Shown here piece by piece: positions 1 to 16,048 of a stretch of DNA of 64,000 nucleotides; position 1 is the first letter of the stretch, and every line of letters starts with the position of its first letter. Below the pieces are notes generated by a model, which was not told the DNA's origin, ran no database searches, and saw nothing but the letters and a program-made list of their open reading frames with translations. Source of the stretch: Verrucomicrobiota bacterium (GTDB lineage Bacteria > Verrucomicrobiota > Verrucomicrobiia > Limisphaerales > AAA164-E04); NCBI GenBank assembly GCA_047947115.1, contig CP170459.1, positions 2,336,001 to 2,400,000 on the forward strand, written 5' to 3'. The position numbers and the translations under genes were made by a program.

Positions 1-1440
1 TTAAAATCACCTTCGGACTGGTCGGATATCGACCGTTCATATCGGTTTCCTACGCTTTTTCTGGCGAGCAAAGCAGTCGGTTGGCTGTTGCTTGGAAGCA
101 TTTTTTCACTGATCGCATCCATCAAGATGCATTCACCTTCCTTCCTGGCAAGTTGCCCTTGGGTGACTTACGGCACCATGATACCGGCGGCGCTTAACGC
201 AGTCGTTTATGGATTTGCCCTGCAGGCATCTTTTGCGGCATTGCTTTGGATGACCATGCGGATGGGCCAGGTGAAACTGGTCGCGCCGGGTTATCTCTTC
301 ATCGGAGGTGCTCTCTGGAATATCGGGGTGCTGGTGGGGGTCGTTGGCATCATGGCCGGTGGTTCTACCGGAATGGCCTACCTCGAAATGCCCGGTTACG
401 CGCAGCCCATGTTGTTCGCCGCGTATACAATCATCGGAGGCATTGCGCTGGTGACGCTTCATAAACGCCAGGTGCGCGTTTTATATCCCTCACAATGGTT
501 CATTTTTGCGGCTTTGTTCTGGTTCCCATGGATTTTCAGTGCAGCCAGTTTCCTTTTGGTGGTATCCCCCGTTCGTGGCGTCACTCAATTGGTGATTGAC
601 GGTTGGTACGTATCCGGTTTGAACATCGTCGTATTGGGTTTTGTTGGGATAGCTCTCCTTCAATATCTCATTCCAAAACTAGCCAGACGGGATCTGTACA
701 ATGGGTACCTTTCCATGTTTGCTTTCTGGATGCTGCTGATTTTCGGAAGTTTTTCGGGCATCCTTCCAGGCCAAACGCTTCCCGCCTGGGTCTCTGCCCT
801 GAGCAGTGTATGCAGTGTGTTTGTAGCATTTGCCTGGATTGTTCTCACGTATAACCTTTATCGCACCATTGAGGGTGGGGGCGCCAAATCCGATGCTCTG
901 GGCATCAGGTTTCTTTATTTTTCTCTGGCTTCAGGTTTGCTTGTGGCACTACTGACCGCTTGGGCTTCTCGTGAAACCATCGCGCAGGTCGTTCAGTTCA
1001 CTTTGTTCCTGCCCGGATTGAAATGGCTGCAACTTTACGGATTCGTTGGAGCTGGTTTACTGGCTGCCATTTACTTGTTTCTCCCAAAAATCTCCGGCAC
1101 CGAATGGTCAAGTACCGGACGTTGGACCGCCACTTTCTGGTCTTATGCAGTGGGCGTCTTCCTGGTCTCGATCGCCTTTTTGTTCGGAGGCTGGAAACAC
1201 GGCAAGGGTCTGACTAACCCGGACATGCCCTTCATGGATGTTCTCCGTGGAGGCATCGCTCCCTTTATCCGCATGAGCACCGTGGGTGAACTCCTCGTAA
1301 CCATTGCGGCATTGCTGGTTGTCTGGAATGTTTCCTGTCTCTTTTGGGGAACTTATTCCAGTTGCCTGCTCAATTGCTGTGGTATCGCAGGGCAAGGAGC
1401 CGGCAGTGGAAAATCTCAACCCAAGAAAGGTTCGAAATAA
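1..1440 (+). CDS. cbb3-type cytochrome c oxidase subunit I (CcoN)-like membrane protein, degenerate (canonical His ligands absent); 5' end lies outside the window
   Basis: Frame 1 is open from base 1. About 12 hydrophobic segments, with CcoN-like segments (YLEMP, LYPSQWF) and a position directly before a CcoO-like gene and a cytochrome c gene. Confidence 0.8.
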   Translation, partial: LKSPSDWSDIDRSYRFPTLFLASKAVGWLLLGSIFSLIASIKMHSPSFLASCPWVTYGTMIPAALNAVVYGFALQASFAALLWMTMRMGQVKLVAPGYLFIGGALWNIGVLVGVVGIMAGGSTGMAYLEMPGYAQPMLFAAYTIIGGIALVTLHKRQVRVLYPSQWFIFAALFWFPWIFSAASFLLVVSPVRGVTQLVIDGWYVSGLNIVVLGFVGIALLQYLIPKLARRDLYNGYLSMFAFWMLLIFGSFSGILPGQTLPAWVSALSSVCSVFVAFAWIVLTYNLYRTIEGGGAKSDALGIRFLYFSLASGLLVALLTAWASRETIAQVVQFTLFLPGLKWLQLYGFVGAGLLAAIYLFLPKISGTEWSSTGRWTATFWSYAVGVFLVSIAFLFGGWKHGKGLTNPDMPFMDVLRGGIAPFIRMSTVGELLVTIAALLVVWNVSCLFWGTYSSCLLNCCGIAGQGAGSGKSQPKKGSK

Positions 1441-1442
1441 TC

Positions 1443-2333
1443 ATGAATCAGGGCCCAACTTTATTCTTAGGCGTACTTTGCGCCATGGCTGTTTCCTGGA
1501 TCGGCTTCGTCATGTTGCCTCAGGTCCAACTCGGCAGTCAGTCCACCCGTGTCGTCAAGGAACTTGGACGTCATTATCCGTCCCCACGCGGCGGTTTGGC
1601 TGATCGTGGCAAGGACGTTTACCGCGCCGCCGGATGTGCCTCCTGTCACACCCAGCAAATTCGTCAGACCGGTTTCGAGTTCGACATCGTCCTGACAGAT
1701 GCTGGCGACTTTACCAACTCCGTTATTGGACTGGTGCAGCAGGCTAATCGGTCCTTGAATGAAAAAGAAGCCACTGACCTGGTCGCCAAAACGCCCATCA
1801 CGATTCGTGAAGGGGTGAAAAAGGACATAGCGGATCATATCCTCAAGCTTTTCAAGGACAGTGGCGCCAAAGTCGCGGCCAACATTCGTCCAATGGGCCC
1901 CGATATCGAACGTGGCTGGGGACCTCGCCAAACAGTTGGTTTGGATTACTTGTACGATCAACCACTCCTTCTCGGCAACCAGCGTATTGGACCAGATCTG
2001 GCCAATGTCGGCTCACGCCTGACGGACCGTCAGTGGCACCTGCTGCACCTTTATCATCCACATACGGTGGCGGCTGGTTCGATCATGCCAGCCTACCCCT
2101 ATCTTTTCGAAACAAGAAAGATCGACGGTCAGCCCTCAGCGGATGCTCTTCCTCTGGAAGGTGATTTCGCTCCCGGAGAAGGGATGGAAGTGGTGCCAAA
2201 ACCAGAAGCCCACTCTCTGGTAGATTACCTGTTGAGCCTTCGAATCGAAAATCCGGTATTCGAAGCTCCCTACTTATTTACACAAGCTGAAAGCAGCGAA
2301 GACAACAATTCCGAAACGGAGCAGGCCCAATGA
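1443..2333 (+). CDS. ccoO: cbb3-type cytochrome c oxidase subunit II (CcoO)-like monoheme cytochrome c with inserted L7/L12-CTD-like domain
   Basis: N-terminal TM helix, CASCH heme motif, RIGPDLANVG and SIMPAYPYL CcoO motifs. ATG at 1443 is 2 nt after the upstream stop. Confidence 0.85.
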   Translation: MNQGPTLFLGVLCAMAVSWIGFVMLPQVQLGSQSTRVVKELGRHYPSPRGGLADRGKDVYRAAGCASCHTQQIRQTGFEFDIVLTDAGDFTNSVIGLVQQANRSLNEKEATDLVAKTPITIREGVKKDIADHILKLFKDSGAKVAANIRPMGPDIERGWGPRQTVGLDYLYDQPLLLGNQRIGPDLANVGSRLTDRQWHLLHLYHPHTVAAGSIMPAYPYLFETRKIDGQPSADALPLEGDFAPGEGMEVVPKPEAHSLVDYLLSLRIENPVFEAPYLFTQAESSEDNNSETEQAQ

Positions 2334-2956
2334 GCGCAAAATCCAAGAAGAACACGCCCAAGAAAAAGCACGCTGAAGACCGTGAACCAGATTTTCACAA
2401 CGCGCCTGTCCCAGTAATTCTTTTTGTCATAGCCATATTGCTGGCTTACTGGGGGATGAACTACCTCAACACCAACGCCGGTGGATTCAACCGCTACGTC
2501 TACGGACCCTACAGTTCCTATGAAATTGTGGCTGATGTTCAACCCGGGAGTGGAGATGATCCAATTAAACGTGGTGCTGATATTTACAGGAACATCTGTA
2601 GTCCATGTCACCAAGTATCCGGTATGGGAGCACCGGGACAGTTTCCTCCGTTGGCCGGTTCTGATTGGGTCAATACGGACGGTCCGAATCGTATATTGCG
2701 AATTATCCTCAATGGCCTCAATGGACCGTTGGAAGTCAATGGCCAAAACTGGAACGGCGCCATGCCAGCTTTTGGCGATGTGATTGCATCCGATGCCGAC
2801 TTGGCAGCTGTCGTCTCCTATATCCGAAACAGCTGGGGTAACGAAGGTAGTATATCTACCCCGGAAGAAGCCGCTGCCGTTCGAGCAGAATCAGGCGACC
2901 GCGGTCGCTCATGGTCCGCAGCAGAACTGCTCGCGCTGCCCGTTGAAGTTCAGTAA
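2330..2956 (+). CDS. membrane-anchored c-type cytochrome (CcoP-like position)
   Basis: TM helix, CSPCH, FPPLAGSDWV, MPAF distal Met and YIRNSWGN motifs. ATGA overlap with ccoO. Confidence 0.85.
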   Translation: MSAKSKKNTPKKKHAEDREPDFHNAPVPVILFVIAILLAYWGMNYLNTNAGGFNRYVYGPYSSYEIVADVQPGSGDDPIKRGADIYRNICSPCHQVSGMGAPGQFPPLAGSDWVNTDGPNRILRIILNGLNGPLEVNGQNWNGAMPAFGDVIASDADLAAVVSYIRNSWGNEGSISTPEEAAAVRAESGDRGRSWSAAELLALPVEVQ

Positions 2957-3024
2957 ACAAACAAAATTTGCAAACAGCGGAATCCGCATGGATTCCGCTG
3001 TTTCATTTTAAGGATAGCTAGATT

Positions 3025-3507
3025 ATGTCACGCGTTGGAATTGGATATGATGTGCACCGCCTCGCCGAAGGCCGAAAATTGATTTTAGGTGGAGTGGAAA
3101 TCCCGCACACTAAAGGACTCGAGGGACACTCCGATGCCGACGTGGTGCTGCACGCACTCTGTGACGCCATCTTTGGGGCCTTGGGCGAATCCGACATTGG
3201 ACAATTTTTTCCGAACACCGATGCCCGCTGGAAAAACGCACCCAGCACCCTCTTCCTGAAAGAAGCCGGACGCCACGTCAAGCTGCATCAGGGAACCATC
3301 GCCAACATTGACATCACCGTCATTGCCGAAGAACCCAAGGTCAATCCGCATACCAAGGAAATGAAATTCCGCATCGCGGAATGCCTGGAGATCAACCCCA
3401 ACAAAATAGGCCTCAAAGCCACCACCAACGAACGTATCGGCTTCATCGGCCGTGGCGAAGGCATCGCCGCCATGGCCGTCGCCAGCATCGACATCAAAGA
3501 AGACTGA
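3025..3507 (+). CDS. ispF: 2-C-methyl-D-erythritol 2,4-cyclodiphosphate synthase
   Basis: RVGIGYDVH, GHSDADV, DIGQFFP, KATTNE and GRGEGIAA motifs. Confidence 0.97.
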   Translation: MSRVGIGYDVHRLAEGRKLILGGVEIPHTKGLEGHSDADVVLHALCDAIFGALGESDIGQFFPNTDARWKNAPSTLFLKEAGRHVKLHQGTIANIDITVIAEEPKVNPHTKEMKFRIAECLEINPNKIGLKATTNERIGFIGRGEGIAAMAVASIDIKED

Positions 3508-3512
3508 TCCAG

Positions 3513-3653
3513 GTAGCCGCGTTTCCAAAAACGTGGCACAAGCCAACCAGTAGCCGCGTTTGCAAAAACGTGGACCCATTTCCAAAACCTTAGCCGCGTT
3601 TCCAAAAACGTGGATGTGTTTCCAAAAAAGTAGCTGCGTTTGCAAAAACGTGG
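3513..3653 (+). repeat. tandem array of four 24-nt GTAG REP palindromes (type B: GTAGCCGCGTTTSCAAAAACGTGG)
   Basis: Copies start at 3513, 3550, 3590 and 3630. The same unit flanks the RAYT gene at 25 kb. Confidence 0.85.
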
Positions 3654-4162
3654 CACCAACCTACGGAGCCCTCCTTCCGACAGGAACTTTCCGTAAAGCC
3701 TGAATCCTTGACTCATTTGGAACCACAAATCTGGAGTGCTGGCGAGACATCGCCGCTCTGGATACGCCAGGAAAACATCGACCATCGTCATTATCTCAGT
3801 AAATGAATCTTCCATCAAACCTTTTATAAGTCGTGACGTTTTCGACGGGTGCTTGATTTCATCGCCAAGGCGCGAAGGCGCAACGACGCAAAGCATGGGA
3901 CCAAGTGGAATAACAGTAGAAAGCAAACCGTAAATGATCAGATGCTTTTGAATCAATTGAAAACAGCGCAACGTGAGCGAGTTTTAAACAAGCTCCTGAA
4001 CATCACCTCCGACACCAACAGCAACAACAGTTCCCTGCGAAACAACACGATGCTGGCGCTCCGATACTTTCCAGAAGAAAAGGCCACCTTCCACTAAACT
4101 CATCCAGGAAACGATTCAAAAACTGGAAATGGTTCAGACCACAAAGTGAAAAAAATCAACCC

Positions 4163-4243
4163 GTAACCGCGCTTCCTAAAGCGTGGCACAAGCTAACCCG
4201 TAGCCGCGTTTGCAAAAACGTGGACCTGTTTCCAAAAAGGTGG
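4163..4243 (+). repeat. two type-B REP copies plus a partial copy
   Basis: GTAACCGCGCTTCCTAAAGCGTGG at 4163, GTAGCCGCGTTTGCAAAAACGTGG at 4200, and a partial GTTTCCAAAAAGGTGG. Confidence 0.8.
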
Positions 4244-4338
4244 CACGAATCAACCTATATCCGCACCTCCAGAAACTTGGCATACACTTCCTTGTCATCA
4301 AGCTCATTCCACACTAGATTTACCACATCCAAACTCAA

Positions 4339-4435
4339 GGAGAGTGAAGGGTGCCTGGTGGTCCCCGCGGTCTTCAAAACCGTTGAGAGGCGGTCAACCC
4401 GTCTCTGGTGTGTTCGATTCGCACCCTCTCCGCCA
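4339..4435 (+). tRNA. selC: tRNA-Sec (anticodon TCA)
   Basis: Anticodon arm GCGGT-CTTCAAA-ACCGT, long variable arm AGAGGCGG/CCGTCTCT, T loop TTCGATT, G discriminator plus encoded CCA; 97 nt. Confidence 0.93.
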
Positions 4436-4582
4436 GCCTTTTTGTAAAATGTAAAATATAGGTAGTAAATATATAATGGTTGCAAATATTCTCAAAAATG
4501 TTGTTTCTTTTCTTGTTTGCCGAAATCTAGTAAATCCAAATCCTTGCAAAAAATCCCATACGCGACCTATACTCATCTTGGC

Positions 4583-5761
4583 ATGGGAAAACAGGTAGAA
4601 AAGATGAAATATCGTGGAATCACGATCCGCGAACGGGTGAATGGTTCAGGCAATATATCTTACAGGGTTGAATGCCCCCTGAAATGGTTCAATCGTCCCG
4701 CTTTTCGTCAGTTCAAGACCAAGAAGGAAGCCAAGATCTTCATTGATGAGCAATTTGATGAACAGGACAAGCATGGGAAACTGGCAAACATTCTCGATTC
4801 AGAGGAACGCCTAGATGCTAGAAAAGCCATAGATCTGCTCAAATCCTGCAACATATCCTTGGTGGATTGTGCTGAATTTTATTTAAAGCATAACCAACCA
4901 GCCAGTGGAGATATGCTGGTAACAGAACTGGCAGAGAAGTTCCTTGAGGCACGCAAAGCAGGATTGGGTGTCAAACGGGGCAGGCCACTGCGTCAACGAT
5001 CCTTGGATGATCTAAATTCCAGACTGAGCAACTTTAGCATCCAGTTTGGGGATCACTTGGTGAAGGATGTGGTCTCCAGCGAAATTGAATCATGGTTGCA
5101 TGGCAATAAGTGGTCACTGCAGACTCGTCAGAATTATTACCGTATCCTCCACACCCTCTTTGAATTTGCCGTGAACAATGGATACAGGGCAGAGAATCCG
5201 ATGAAAGCCATTTCCAAGCCGTGTCCTGATGATAGTGTTCCCGGTGTGCTGTCCTTGGTTCAGTGTGAAAATATATTAGGTGCCGCCTTCCGAACAGAGC
5301 ATGACTTGGGTCTACTCGGTTATGTGGTCCTTGGAATGTATTGTGGCATTCGTTCCGCAGAATTGGAGAGACTGGATTGGTCTGCTGTGGATCTGGAATC
5401 CAGACATGTCACCATTAGTGCCAAGATTGCCAAGGCAAGATCCATCCGCAATGTGGATATTCCTGACAATGCCATGTTGTGGTTGATGCGATGTCAGAAC
5501 AGAACAGGTAGTATCAGGCCACCTCAGTTCCGGGAGCGTTTTGACAAGTTGAGAGAGTTGGCAGGAATCAAGGAATGGCCTCATAATGCTCTTCGTCACA
5601 GTGCTGGCAGTTACCATTTTGCTTTCCATGAGGATTCTGCCAAGACTGCATCCATGCTGGGTCATACACAGGATTCTGTTCTGTTTAAACATTACAGGGC
5701 TTTGACCAAGAAGGCTGATGCTAGGGTGTTCTATGAGTTGGTTCCTGATCACGATATTTGA
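4583..5761 (+). CDS. tyrosine recombinase / phage-type integrase
   Basis: GIRSAEL (catalytic R), HNALRHS (HxxR), LGH and KHY catalytic motifs. Lies immediately 3' of tRNA-Sec. Start may be 4583 or 4604. Confidence 0.92.
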   Translation: MGKQVEKMKYRGITIRERVNGSGNISYRVECPLKWFNRPAFRQFKTKKEAKIFIDEQFDEQDKHGKLANILDSEERLDARKAIDLLKSCNISLVDCAEFYLKHNQPASGDMLVTELAEKFLEARKAGLGVKRGRPLRQRSLDDLNSRLSNFSIQFGDHLVKDVVSSEIESWLHGNKWSLQTRQNYYRILHTLFEFAVNNGYRAENPMKAISKPCPDDSVPGVLSLVQCENILGAAFRTEHDLGLLGYVVLGMYCGIRSAELERLDWSAVDLESRHVTISAKIAKARSIRNVDIPDNAMLWLMRCQNRTGSIRPPQFRERFDKLRELAGIKEWPHNALRHSAGSYHFAFHEDSAKTASMLGHTQDSVLFKHYRALTKKADARVFYELVPDHDI

Positions 5762-13506: not shown

Positions 13507-14172
13507 TTATCCCTCTCCTTGTTTTTCATATAAGCTGAGCATTTTTTGGGTGTGCTGAAGGCGGTGTTGCAGTGGACCGTCGGCGTTTTGTTCGTAACGG
13601 GTCATGACTTCGTTTATTTGAGGGACTAGTGAAGGGGATACCAGTTTCCTGGCGAGCAACATGCCAAATGCCAGCGCTACACGGTATTTGACATGATGCT
13701 CTTTGATTCGGTTCGCCACCCGTAATAGACGTTCAGCATCTTCTGGTTCGGGTTTTGTTCGAACGGTAGAGGCCAGTGCCAGCATGATGGCTTCGTTGTG
13801 TTCTTCCGCGAGCAGGTCACGTGATAGTTTTTTTTGGATGACCAAATCCGCCATGTCACGTGCGATCGCGTCTTTCGTTCGAACATTCTCCACCTGATTT
13901 GGGAGATTCAGGTTTGAATAGACTTCGGCTAGTCTGATCAGTTCAGGATCTAATCCTCGGGCTTCCGGTTGAGTTGGGGCGTTCTGAGTGTCGTGTTCGC
14001 TGTTTTCTAATGGTTCATTCGTAAGGGGAGGGCGATTGCTGGCGGTCAGGGAGGATATGCCTTTCACTATTTGTTTTCGGAAAATCAAACACAAGAACAT
14101 GATAATGGCAGGCCAGATGATATCTCCTGTCACGATGCCTGCTTGTTCGATTTTCTTTGTGAATGGTTCCAT
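13507..14172 (-). CDS. hypothetical protein with N-terminal TM helix and helical C-terminal domain
   Basis: 221-aa ORF, GAGG RBS-like sequence upstream, TM segment WPAIIMFLCLIFRKQI. Confidence 0.7.
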   Translation of the reverse strand: MEPFTKKIEQAGIVTGDIIWPAIIMFLCLIFRKQIVKGISSLTASNRPPLTNEPLENSEHDTQNAPTQPEARGLDPELIRLAEVYSNLNLPNQVENVRTKDAIARDMADLVIQKKLSRDLLAEEHNEAIMLALASTVRTKPEPEDAERLLRVANRIKEHHVKYRVALAFGMLLARKLVSPSLVPQINEVMTRYEQNADGPLQHRLQHTQKMLSLYEKQGEG

Positions 14173-14237
14173 GTCCTCACATTGTGGTGCTGTATCTCCG
14201 GGATTTCAATGAGAAGTCTTCTTGAGGGGGGGAGTGG

Positions 14238-14301
14238 CCACGTTTTTGCAAACGCGGCTACTGGGGGGAAGGGTTGGCCACGTTTTTGTAGACGTGGCTA
14301 C
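14238..14301 (-). repeat. two type-B REP copies (minus strand)
   Basis: CCACGTTTTTGCAAACGCGGCTAC at 14238 and CCACGTTTTTGTAGACGTGGCTAC at 14278. Confidence 0.8.
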
Positions 14302-14487
14302 TGGGGGGGGCATGGCGTTTTACGTGGAAGTTGGATCCAATTTATGGATGCGGGATGTTTGGTTGTTATGGAGTCAGCGGTTGGACATTGGAGTTGCAAA
14401 TTTGAACGATCCTATGCAGTTTGAATTGTGGTGTGGGACGTATGAACTGATTGAGAATGATTTCAAGGATATGGGATCTTGGTGGCC

Positions 14488-14925
14488 ATGAACTATTTTG
14501 TGTTTTGCCTTTGCTTGTTGTTTTTGTTGTGCCCCGGGTTGGATGGAGAGGAATCAGGCGGTTTTGCCCTCACCATTCAGGTTTACGGAGCTGAATCCTC
14601 GGCGGGCCATATCCACCTCTATATTTTTACCAGTAAAACGGATTACTTAAAGGTGCCGATGAAGGGCAAACATTTGTCGGTTGATGAAGAGGGCGGGGCG
14701 GTATTCAATTTCAAGTTATCTGAGGGGAAGTATTCCATTTGTGCTTTTCATGACAAGAACGGGAACGGAAAACTGGATAAAGGTTTTTTGGGCATTCCCA
14801 CCGAGTTGTTTGCTTTTTCCAATCAGGCCAAAGGCTTGTTTGGGCCACCTTCTTATCAATCGACTTTATTTGAGTTAAACAAGGATACCACGCTGAAACT
14901 CAGACTTGGGAAAGCCAAAGACTAG
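14488..14925 (+). CDS. DUF2141 family secreted protein
   Basis: G.YSI.AFHDKNGNGKLD.GFLGIPTE..AFSN...FGPPSY pattern; signal peptide. Confidence 0.85.
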   Translation: MNYFVFCLCLLFLLCPGLDGEESGGFALTIQVYGAESSAGHIHLYIFTSKTDYLKVPMKGKHLSVDEEGGAVFNFKLSEGKYSICAFHDKNGNGKLDKGFLGIPTELFAFSNQAKGLFGPPSYQSTLFELNKDTTLKLRLGKAKD

Positions 14926-15118
14926 AGCTGATCCTGTGGGTTTCAAGATCGATGCATGTCTTATACTGATTGCCAAACGTATGTGCGCATAACGGCTCGC
15001 TGTTGCTTATTATTCTCACGCCCGCTGCGCTAGGGACGCAGTGGCGCAGAGTTTTTTTCTGAAATTACTTTTGGCAAACGTTATTATCAGGAGCAAGCTC
15101 ATTCATACCTGGAGTCAT

Positions 15119-16048
15119 TCAGATGTTTGAAGGGTATGCGTTTTTCAGGTCTGCAATGAGTTTGGTTACGGCTTTTTCTTTTGCCTTGGCTTCCACTTCC
15201 ACAGTCAATTGGCAGCCTGTCCATGATTGAGGGAAATCCTTCACCGCAATGTAGTCATGATGTCTGTGAGGTTTGGGGCCGTTCCAACCTTCCAGGGGGC
15301 TGGAAATATGAAAGAGGGGTTCCGATGTCCAGGAGTCCATCGCTTTTTCGGTTGCTTCGGCGATTGATAGCTTATCGGGAAGGCATCGGTGATGGTGTAC
15401 GTCGTAGACCAACGGCACATTTAAATCATGGCACACGGGGAGCAGGTCTGACGGAGTGTACACCTTGTCGTCGTTTTCCAATGTCAGTCGAGAGCGCACA
15501 GGCTCTGGAAGGGTTGAAATGTTCCTGCGTAGATCAAGCAGTGCGGATGCCTTGTTCCCGTACGCGCCTCCTCCGTGGATGTTGATGGTATCTGCTCCCA
15601 CCCATGCCGCGACTTCCGCCTGATAGTTCAGTTCGGCTTTCGAGTGTTCGAGTGTTTTCGGGTTGGGGGAGTTGAGCACGACGAATTGATCAGGATGAAA
15701 TGAAAGTCGAATCTGTCTGGATCGGGCGAATGTGCCACATTCCCGGAAACGGGAAATGATTTCGCTGCTGCCGGGGAGCTCGCTGATGTCATAGCCCGCT
15801 TCGGAGTGTGTTTTCACCGGCAGGATCTGGCTGTTGATACGGAAAGCTCCGATTCCATGTTGCTCACAGTATTCCAGTGAACGCATCAGCGCGTCTGAGT
15901 TTCCCCGGCAAAGTGCAGAAAGTTTTTCCAACCGTTGTTGCCTTGTAAGCCGCAGCATTGCTGTAACGGTAGTGGTTCTGAACTTTATGGGTTCAGCAGA
16001 AAATTGGCAACAAAGGCCGAATCGGAGCCGAGCCAGCGGTCCCTTCAT
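15119..16048 (-). CDS. uvsE: UV DNA damage repair endonuclease
   Basis: FRINS, SFHPDQFVVLNS, IHGGG, LENDD, YDVHHH and EAKAKE motifs. ATG at 16048 overlaps the tspO stop (ATGA). Confidence 0.93.
   Translation of the reverse strand: MKGPLARLRFGLCCQFSAEPIKFRTTTVTAMLRLTRQQRLEKLSALCRGNSDALMRSLEYCEQHGIGAFRINSQILPVKTHSEAGYDISELPGSSEIISRFRECGTFARSRQIRLSFHPDQFVVLNSPNPKTLEHSKAELNYQAEVAAWVGADTINIHGGGAYGNKASALLDLRRNISTLPEPVRSRLTLENDDKVYTPSDLLPVCHDLNVPLVYDVHHHRCLPDKLSIAEATEKAMDSWTSEPLFHISSPLEGWNGPKPHRHHDYIAVKDFPQSWTGCQLTVEVEAKAKEKAVTKLIADLKNAYPSNI

Follow-up and report, generated by a model that had tools for sequence, protein, structure and literature searches.

The locus and its operon

The window analysed here, a 64,000-nucleotide stretch from a Verrucomicrobiota bacterium of the order Limisphaerales, opens with the last genes of a respiratory operon. 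A CcoN-like oxidase subunit is followed by a CcoO/FixO-like cytochrome c, a second cytochrome c and an inverted repeat (Table 1). The CcoO-like protein is encoded by a single uninterrupted open reading frame, which contains a homologue of the C-terminal domain (CTD) of ribosomal protein L7/L12. The nucleotides assigned to this domain translate to the sequence quoted in the original prediction.

Table 1. Features of the oxidase-like module, numbered from the first nucleotide of the window.
Feature	Position	Strand	Remarks
CcoN-like subunit without the six metal-binding histidines	1..1440	+	Starts a few codons before the window; COX1 91.7 bits
CcoO/FixO-like monohaem cytochrome c, host of the insert	1443..2333	+	296 aa
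Predicted N-terminal membrane helix, residues 4-29	1452..1529	+	Helix H4-29 in the model; hydrophobic sequence
Haem-binding motif CASCH (C65, C68, H69)	1635..1649	+	Invariant in 117/117 aligned homologues
Net 73-residue insertion relative to orthologues without insert	1674..1892	+	Domain plus the ends of two linking strands
L7/L12 C-terminal-domain homologue	1677..1883	+	Residues 79-147 of the CcoO-like protein; PF00542 44.6 bits as an isolated piece; beta-alpha-alpha-beta-alpha-beta
Met215, likely axial haem ligand	2085..2087	+	Invariant in 117/117; role by analogy with the CcoO family
Monohaem cytochrome c with membrane anchor; closes the module	2330..2956	+	Cytochrom_C 50.6 bits; same place in 11/11 operons
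Perfect 14-bp inverted repeat behind the module	2972..3003	+	Terminator-like; function inferred

Upstream of the module, six genes resemble alternative complex III (ACIII) in size, order and haem motifs, with five CxxCH motifs in the first and one in the fifth; one small membrane-protein gene accompanies them. By the usual layout of ACIII operons, the six would encode the pentahaem ActA, the Fe-S protein ActB, the NrfD-like ActC, ActD, the monohaem ActE and ActF. A Pfam scan of ActF returned no match. The gene order actA-F, ccoN, ccoO, cytochrome c is shared by each of the 11 operons mapped in the class and recurs in further regions. Refojo reportedly described ACIII genes beside cbb3 oxidase genes in Opitutaceae in 2010.

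The model of the CcoN-like subunit (pLDDT 94.8) retains the 12-helix CcoN fold, with a TM score of 0.91 and an rmsd of 2.4 to 3mk7_A. When aligned with the intact CcoN of the same genome, all six histidine ligand positions are substituted, and three histidines remain in the whole protein. It scores 62.6 bits on the ccoN equivalog, far below the cut-off of 583.15. At other loci, the genome encodes an intact ccoNO fusion and an A-family COX1, and COX1 matches below 1e-100 occur in 36 of 41 genomes of the order. Since the neighbouring CcoN lacks its six histidines and an intact ccoNO is found elsewhere in the genome, the CcoO-like host does not appear to be part of a working cbb3 oxidase.

The histidine-less CcoN is a finding in its own right, exemplified by positions 1-1440 of the window (13974-15440 of locus L001). 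Most of the order's loci have it next to ACIII, as do some from other orders (L043, L056, L059, L177, L178). The histidine ligands are kept in many Opitutales-type loci and in a few of the window's order.

Further downstream, a presumably ispF-like gene (3025-3507) is separated from a tRNA-SeC (4339-4435) by two short clusters of imperfect repeats at 3513-3654 and 4163-4294. These lie about 650 bp apart, are 89% identical over 75 nucleotides and have an internal period of 20 nucleotides. Behind the tRNA follows a 414-residue open reading frame (4517-5761), which we take from its motifs to be a tyrosine integrase. The tRNA and the integrase-like frame likely mark the edge of an integrated element.

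Identity and fold of the inserted domain

Within the whole protein, the insert matches the Pfam family Ribosomal_L12 (PF00542) at 40.1 bits, with a cut-off of 25.9 and over profile positions 1-65 of 67. FixO (PF02433) is recognised at 90.3 bits (cut-off 29.6) in two stretches that flank the insert. A phmmer search of the PDB retrieved the E. coli L12 CTD (5e-8, residues 1-67). On an L12 profile built for this analysis, the insert scored 43.1 bits, its reversed sequence 0.4 and its shuffled versions 10.6 at most (1964 of 2000 shuffles scored). Four residues (QTGF) separate CASCHTQQIR from EFDIV. The span from CxxCH to GPDL comprises 122 residues in the host versus 49 in orthologues without insert, which gives the net insertion of 73 residues. 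The protein falls short of both full-length equivalogs, scoring 38.7-39.3 bits on the whole bL12 model TIGR00855 (cut-off 84.4), where the flanks are CcoO sequence, and 79.5 bits on the NCBIfam ccoO model (cut-off 200.65). A feature search returned one FixO cluster of 61 members, 39% of them with PF00542. Genome contigs scanned with one insert as the query gave no confirmed match.

The AlphaFold2 model, based on 117 homologues, predicts residues 77-151 with a pLDDT of about 93 as strand-helix-helix-strand-helix-strand; host residues 159-190 are poorly predicted. In Foldseek, nine L12 chains rank first (8yeq with TM 0.93 and rmsd 1.1), and VIA-align gives a Z score of 13.2 for L12 versus 9.4 for ClpS. 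The predicted fold superposes on solved L12 structures with an rmsd of 1.1-1.4 Å over 69-72 residues, at 36-40% sequence identity, while the host core weakly matches 3mk7_B, 8smr_F and 6xkw_o. The first and last strands of the domain project outward from the loop behind the haem motif. As these strands run side by side, the domain can plug in as a hairpin extension that leaves the haem domain intact. Profile matches, predicted fold and the tree described below agree with the original prediction that an L12 CTD homologue sits inside a CcoO-like cytochrome c with FixO sequence on either side, and we regard the insert as confirmed to be a complete L7/L12 C-terminal domain homologous to that of bL12.

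Correctly noted at the outset was also the replacement of the K..VIK.VR signature of L12 by T..VIG.VQ. Four basic positions that are invariant in 52 of 52 L12 CTDs read T91, G96, Q99 and T111 in the window, and are kept in 6, 16, 17 and 25 of 163 distinct inserts. The lysine content drops from 17% in L12 to 7% in the inserts. We take the lost positions to correspond to K65, K70, R73 and K84 in helices A and B of E. coli L12, where they presumably bind translation GTPases. The window's genome has a separate, intact rplL, and the window's insert is identical to the CTD of its product at 23 of 70 positions.

c-type haem domains lie in the periplasm. In the model, a single N-terminal membrane helix is followed by the domain with the invariant CxxCH, from which we infer that the insert is periplasmic as well. 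Recruitment of a ribosomal fold into a periplasmic respiratory subunit, as originally proposed, thus holds with regard to homology and probable location, but the host would not be a subunit of a working cbb3 oxidase.

The insert is also carried by relatives and by single contigs from other studies, and is not the product of a chimeric assembly. In two of the four sequencing runs examined, the whole 1.2 kb lies on a single contig, and joints were seen in none of the four; one of these runs, X1, is near-identical to the window and possibly its own source. Half or more of the words of the stretch turn up in 20 of the 24 runs listed, which represent metagenomes of estuary, marsh and seawater from 18 studies. 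The stretch is present as one contig in two RNA libraries. The GC content is 0.51 in the insert and 0.57 and 0.53 in its flanks. Among the best 120 of 895 homologues, a list biased by its ranking for likeness to an insert-bearing query, 119 have the insert, and the remaining one is a fragment that lacks the haem motif. In the window's family, 20 of 22 genomes contain a full-length match; the two genomes without a match are 79% and 94% complete.

Two further uses of L12-like sequence came to our attention. Locus L160 (2459-2656, minus strand) may hold a second L12-like domain in a loop of a multi-pass transporter, which looks OPT-like to us; it matches PF00542 positions 2-65 at 21.5 bits, below the cut-off. 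Loci L163-L168 encode small proteins that have one or two copies of the L12 helix hairpin alone, plus a C-terminal membrane helix. These proteins are common in the order and are a different use of L12-like sequence.

Distribution, origin and variability of the insert

When 401 genomes of the phylum were searched, one continuous match was found only in the three genomes that belong to the window's order, among the 150 of 648 matches listed. The other genomes among the matches listed align in two pieces, covering residues 1-82 and about 151-280. A profile of the insert gave a single match in 126 of 128 genomes of other orders and none in two; where listed, this match is an rplL-sized frame. The sensitivity of this profile is incomplete, as it missed short variants inside the order. 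Among the genomes searched, the insert was found only in the window's order. There, 258 of 301 genomes (a tally that includes the unpublished genome G651) have a match, and 119 of the 150 listed matches cross the insert in one piece by hand count; some of the weaker matches carry it too. The record titles of insert-bearing loci name Limisphaerales or Verrucomicrobia subdivision 3, and three titles from outside the phylum are probably label errors.

The insert coincides with the altered CcoN. We parsed 126 loci, of which 112 remained after removal of 10 duplicates and 4 loci without usable CcoN; histidine status was assigned by motif count and checked against the CcoN alignment. All 59 loci with an insert have a histidine-less CcoN, none of the 29 loci with intact CcoN has an insert, and 24 histidine-less loci are without one. 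An independent scan of 80 loci recovered 32 L12-type inserts, 28 beside a histidine-less CcoN, four with no CcoN in view and none beside an intact one. These loci are kin and do not represent independent trials. Since 59 out of 59 probably reflects one gain after one loss of the histidines, the link between insert and dead CcoN may be historical and not causal.

We reconstructed the history of the insert from 39 selected rows, using the CcoO core without insert together with CcoN, and rooted the tree on the intact operons. The histidine-less operons form a clade (support 100/100), whose first three branches have no insert. All 20 rows with insert fall into one subclade (95/94), together with 11 rows without. 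Insert-bearing rows as a clade of their own were rejected (p-AU 0.0004); after addition of three rows with scar-like junctions, which were chosen after the tree had been seen, such a clade was not rejected (p-AU 0.14). The trees imply seven to nine changes between presence and absence, of which three to four are forced by the starred branches. An independent tree of ActA, ActC and ActE gives eight changes and does not unite the four operons with intact CcoN in one group, so that the order of events depends on the CcoO and CcoN tree. Some rows without insert inside the insert clade have ancestral-looking loops, which suggests recombination as well as deletion. On these trees, the simplest reading would be one gain after the loss of the histidines, followed by several losses or replacements.

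As to the donor, the inserts of 14 families, represented by one each, form a group (94/93) within the rplL clade of the order plus a further family, f8 (100/94), and 13 of the 14 are closest to the rplL of f8. An alternative topology is not rejected over the 69 columns (p-AU 0.23). One relative's insert, at 60.5 bits on PF00542, is identical to the L12 CTD of the window's genome at 36 of 70 positions. From these trees, the conclusion stands that the insert was probably copied from a verrucomicrobial rplL with a donor of the order-plus-f8 type.

An earlier assignment to the order's own modern rplL has been withdrawn. It had relied on a narrow outgroup sample of L12 and on 13 inserts that had been selected with the order's profile according to score. 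The extra loop residue on which it drew also occurs in rplL outside the order, in 11 of the families sampled, the insert profile scores the rplL of other orders at up to 77 bits versus 40-54 for the order's own, and the window's insert reaches 43.1 bits on the outgroup profile versus 34.5 on the order's.

Two peculiarities of rplL itself are possible taxonomic markers. The genes of the order and of the 11 other sampled families encode an additional residue between helices A and B (L358-L377, L130-L157), and most of those of the order a second one in the first loop.

With respect to constraint, the dN/dS of the insert is about 0.05 between the window and its closest relative, equal to that of the core. 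For 12 of the 15 pairs compared, it lies between 0.015 and 0.51. Of the rest, two were unequal in length and one saturated; one pair had a misaligned core. By this measure, purifying selection on the insert is strong in some lineages. Column identity is 0.33 for the insert, 0.63-0.68 for the haem domain and 0.73-0.79 for real L12. Most positions conserved among inserts are glycine, proline or alanine, or belong to the core that the domain has in common with L12. G-T-N stands out as the one clear new motif, present in 128 of 163 inserts; the window's genus reads GDF at this place.

The domain also varies in size. Insert lengths of 53-144 residues were found in the independent scan of 80 loci, and a 54-residue form has dispensed with one helix (helix B) and one strand (strand 2). 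Together with the tree, these comparisons suggest that the insert has repeatedly been lost, shortened or interrupted. Two loci illustrate the upper end of this variation. L327 holds an insert of 144 residues, and the CcoO-like orthologue at L161 (976-2415, minus strand) has about 170 extra, alanine-rich and weakly TPR-like residues nested inside its L12 domain.

After correction, co-variation with the insert was seen at no residue of the CcoN-like protein, the cytochrome c, ActA, B, D, E and F or the product of the small gene ahead of ccoN. The test, confined to these products of the operon, has low power with its five to six independent pairs. Only the insert junction itself passes.

Possible roles of the graft and comparison with known systems

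We consider it the most plausible explanation, held with moderate confidence, that the electron-relay cytochrome of a dead oxidase carries the graft as a dispensable steric appendage, and that the graft is not the binding site of one particular partner. In this scenario, an ACIII-linked cbb3 oxidase would first have lost the ligands of haem b and of the b3-CuB site. This loss would have relaxed the loop behind the haem motif, which measures 49 residues almost without exception in working enzymes. The 3' half of a verrucomicrobial rplL would then have been copied once into the relaxed loop. The metal-free CcoN would serve as a membrane scaffold that positions two c-type haems beside ACIII, from where electrons would pass to the intact oxidases encoded elsewhere. 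The graft itself would need only to stay folded, and at most it would space or shield the relay. The relay role is suggested by the invariant haem ligands next to a subunit that is unable to accept electrons at haem b; the canonical path in cbb3 oxidases, as given in PMC7876108, runs cp-co-b-b3/CuB. As a counterpoint, purifying selection on the sequence and persistence in about half of a large order would also fit a real binding role. Moreover, the conserved G-T-N motif is unexplained if the domain is a mere appendage.

Such a binding role was put forward in the original prediction, which envisaged a docking module for an electron donor or assembly factor. In its specific form, the domain would bind ActA, ActE, ActB, the neighbouring cytochrome c or an intact terminal oxidase and thereby organise a supercomplex. 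We judge this somewhat unlikely. The L12 CTD and ClpS, the latter matched by the insert with a Z score of 9.4, are both generally known as binding folds, dN/dS is low in several pairs, and the insert is confined to modules whose role has altered. There is a precedent in the cytochrome c1 hairpin of P. aeruginosa, a lineage-specific extension of a periplasmic cytochrome that ties a supercomplex together (PMC10556555). Yet besides G-T-N the inserts have no conserved surface patch of their own, some variants do without helix B and strand 2 while others accommodate large blocks nested inside the domain, and several losses have occurred without a detectable change in the eight neighbours. With repeated loss and remodelling, and no co-varying residue in the low-power test, the docking proposal is so far not supported. 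A more far-reaching variant, in which the L7/L12 head is an adaptor that couples a two-haem ACIII exit with metal-free CcoN to ACIII or to a working oxidase, and hence forms a new supercomplex architecture, appears unlikely to us.

Decidedly less probable is that the domain serves to display a modification, with its exposed G-T-N turn glycosylated and presenting the glycan in a manner akin to the Thr-Asn motifs of periplasmic tails. TN is 4.9-fold enriched over expectation in the periplasmic part of 84 proteins of the order versus 0.55-fold in 28 from other orders, the tails of the order carry repeated TN, ActE has an invariant TN, and T89 is new relative to L12 and present in 81% of inserts. 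Against this, the window's genus reads GDF, its proteome shows no excess of TN (0.84 versus 0.86, with a crude secreted set), GTN is kept where the tails lack TN, and the threonine and asparagine may simply cap a helix. N-glycosylation by an STT3 enzyme in particular is not supported, with STT3 above the cut-off in only 2 of 61 genomes of the order, the window's genome not among them, and N-x-S/T not enriched.

The Thr-Asn repeats merit separate mention. They occur in Ala/Pro-rich periplasmic tails, such as the C-termini of the CcoO-like proteins L108, L111 and L115, and in the ActE alignment. Other orders and the genus of the window have hardly any of them, and they may be a modification signal of unknown type.

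A retained ribosomal function, by which the domain would bind the ribosome or translation GTPases, perhaps while the protein is inserted co-translationally, is highly improbable. The fold is full-length, with an rmsd of about 1.2 Å to L12, but the invariant basic residues are mostly gone, the lysine content has dropped, the domain lies behind a single membrane helix inside a c-type haem domain, and the genome has its intact rplL. Finally, a chimeric assembly or convergence on a look-alike small alpha/beta fold, a fold class common enough to give ClpS and the pedestal domains of PBPs Z scores of 6-9 against the insert, is refuted by the near-universal presence of the insert among the best homologues, by the single contigs across it and by its 36-40% identity to L12 compared with 7-12% to ClpS.

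The domain graft is real, unusual and apparently unpublished. A literature search at the level of titles and abstracts found no report of the insert or of a histidine-less CcoN, and passages of PMC9599734, PMC4013037 and PMC13274419 contain nothing on the insert. The graft presents a dated and traceable case in which a core translation domain has moved across the membrane into a respiratory chain, and present-day genomes still show the donor type, the insertion site, the ancestral state and the later losses. Some insert-bearing proteins are already mislabelled by automatic pipelines as ribosomal protein L7/L12 (P0089, P0103). As the ACIII-adjacent 'cbb3 oxidase' of this order and of some other verrucomicrobia could bind neither haems b nor copper, genome papers may be mistaken in counting it as a high-affinity oxidase. 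For Limisphaera, PMC13608581 lists ACIII and caa3, cbb3 and bd oxidases. The finding also bears on the route by which electrons leave ACIII in these bacteria, which are abundant in soil, fresh water and coastal settings.

The closest known counterpart of the operon is the ACIII-cbb3 gene cluster of Verrucomicrobiota; PMC8498564 and PMC6688271 describe ACIII genes that adjoin cbb3 oxidase genes in verrucomicrobial methanotrophs. Its gene order is the same as in the window. Passages of these papers treat the cluster as a working cbb3 oxidase, whereas here its CcoN has lost the histidines in most loci of the order.

The host shares with CcoO/FixO of cbb3 oxidases (PF02433; 3mk7_B, 6xkw_o) the N-terminal helix, the CxxCH, RxGPDL and SxMP motifs and the gene position. 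It differs in the 73-residue insert, the score below the equivalog cut-off, the histidine-less CcoN partner and the monohaem partner cytochrome.

For the insert itself, two folds invite comparison. The ClpS adaptor has the same topology and a Z score of 8.9-9.4, but its identity is as low as 7-12%, and a Pfam scan gave no match to the ClpS family up to E 1; L12 is closer to the insert by every measure. With the bL12 CTD (PF00542; 1ctf, 8yeq), the insert has in common the match over the whole profile and the predicted topology. The N-terminal dimerisation domain and hinge of bL12 are absent from it. Unlike its ribosomal counterpart, the grafted domain sits inside another domain, has lost the invariant basic residues, evolves far faster and is presumably located in the periplasm.
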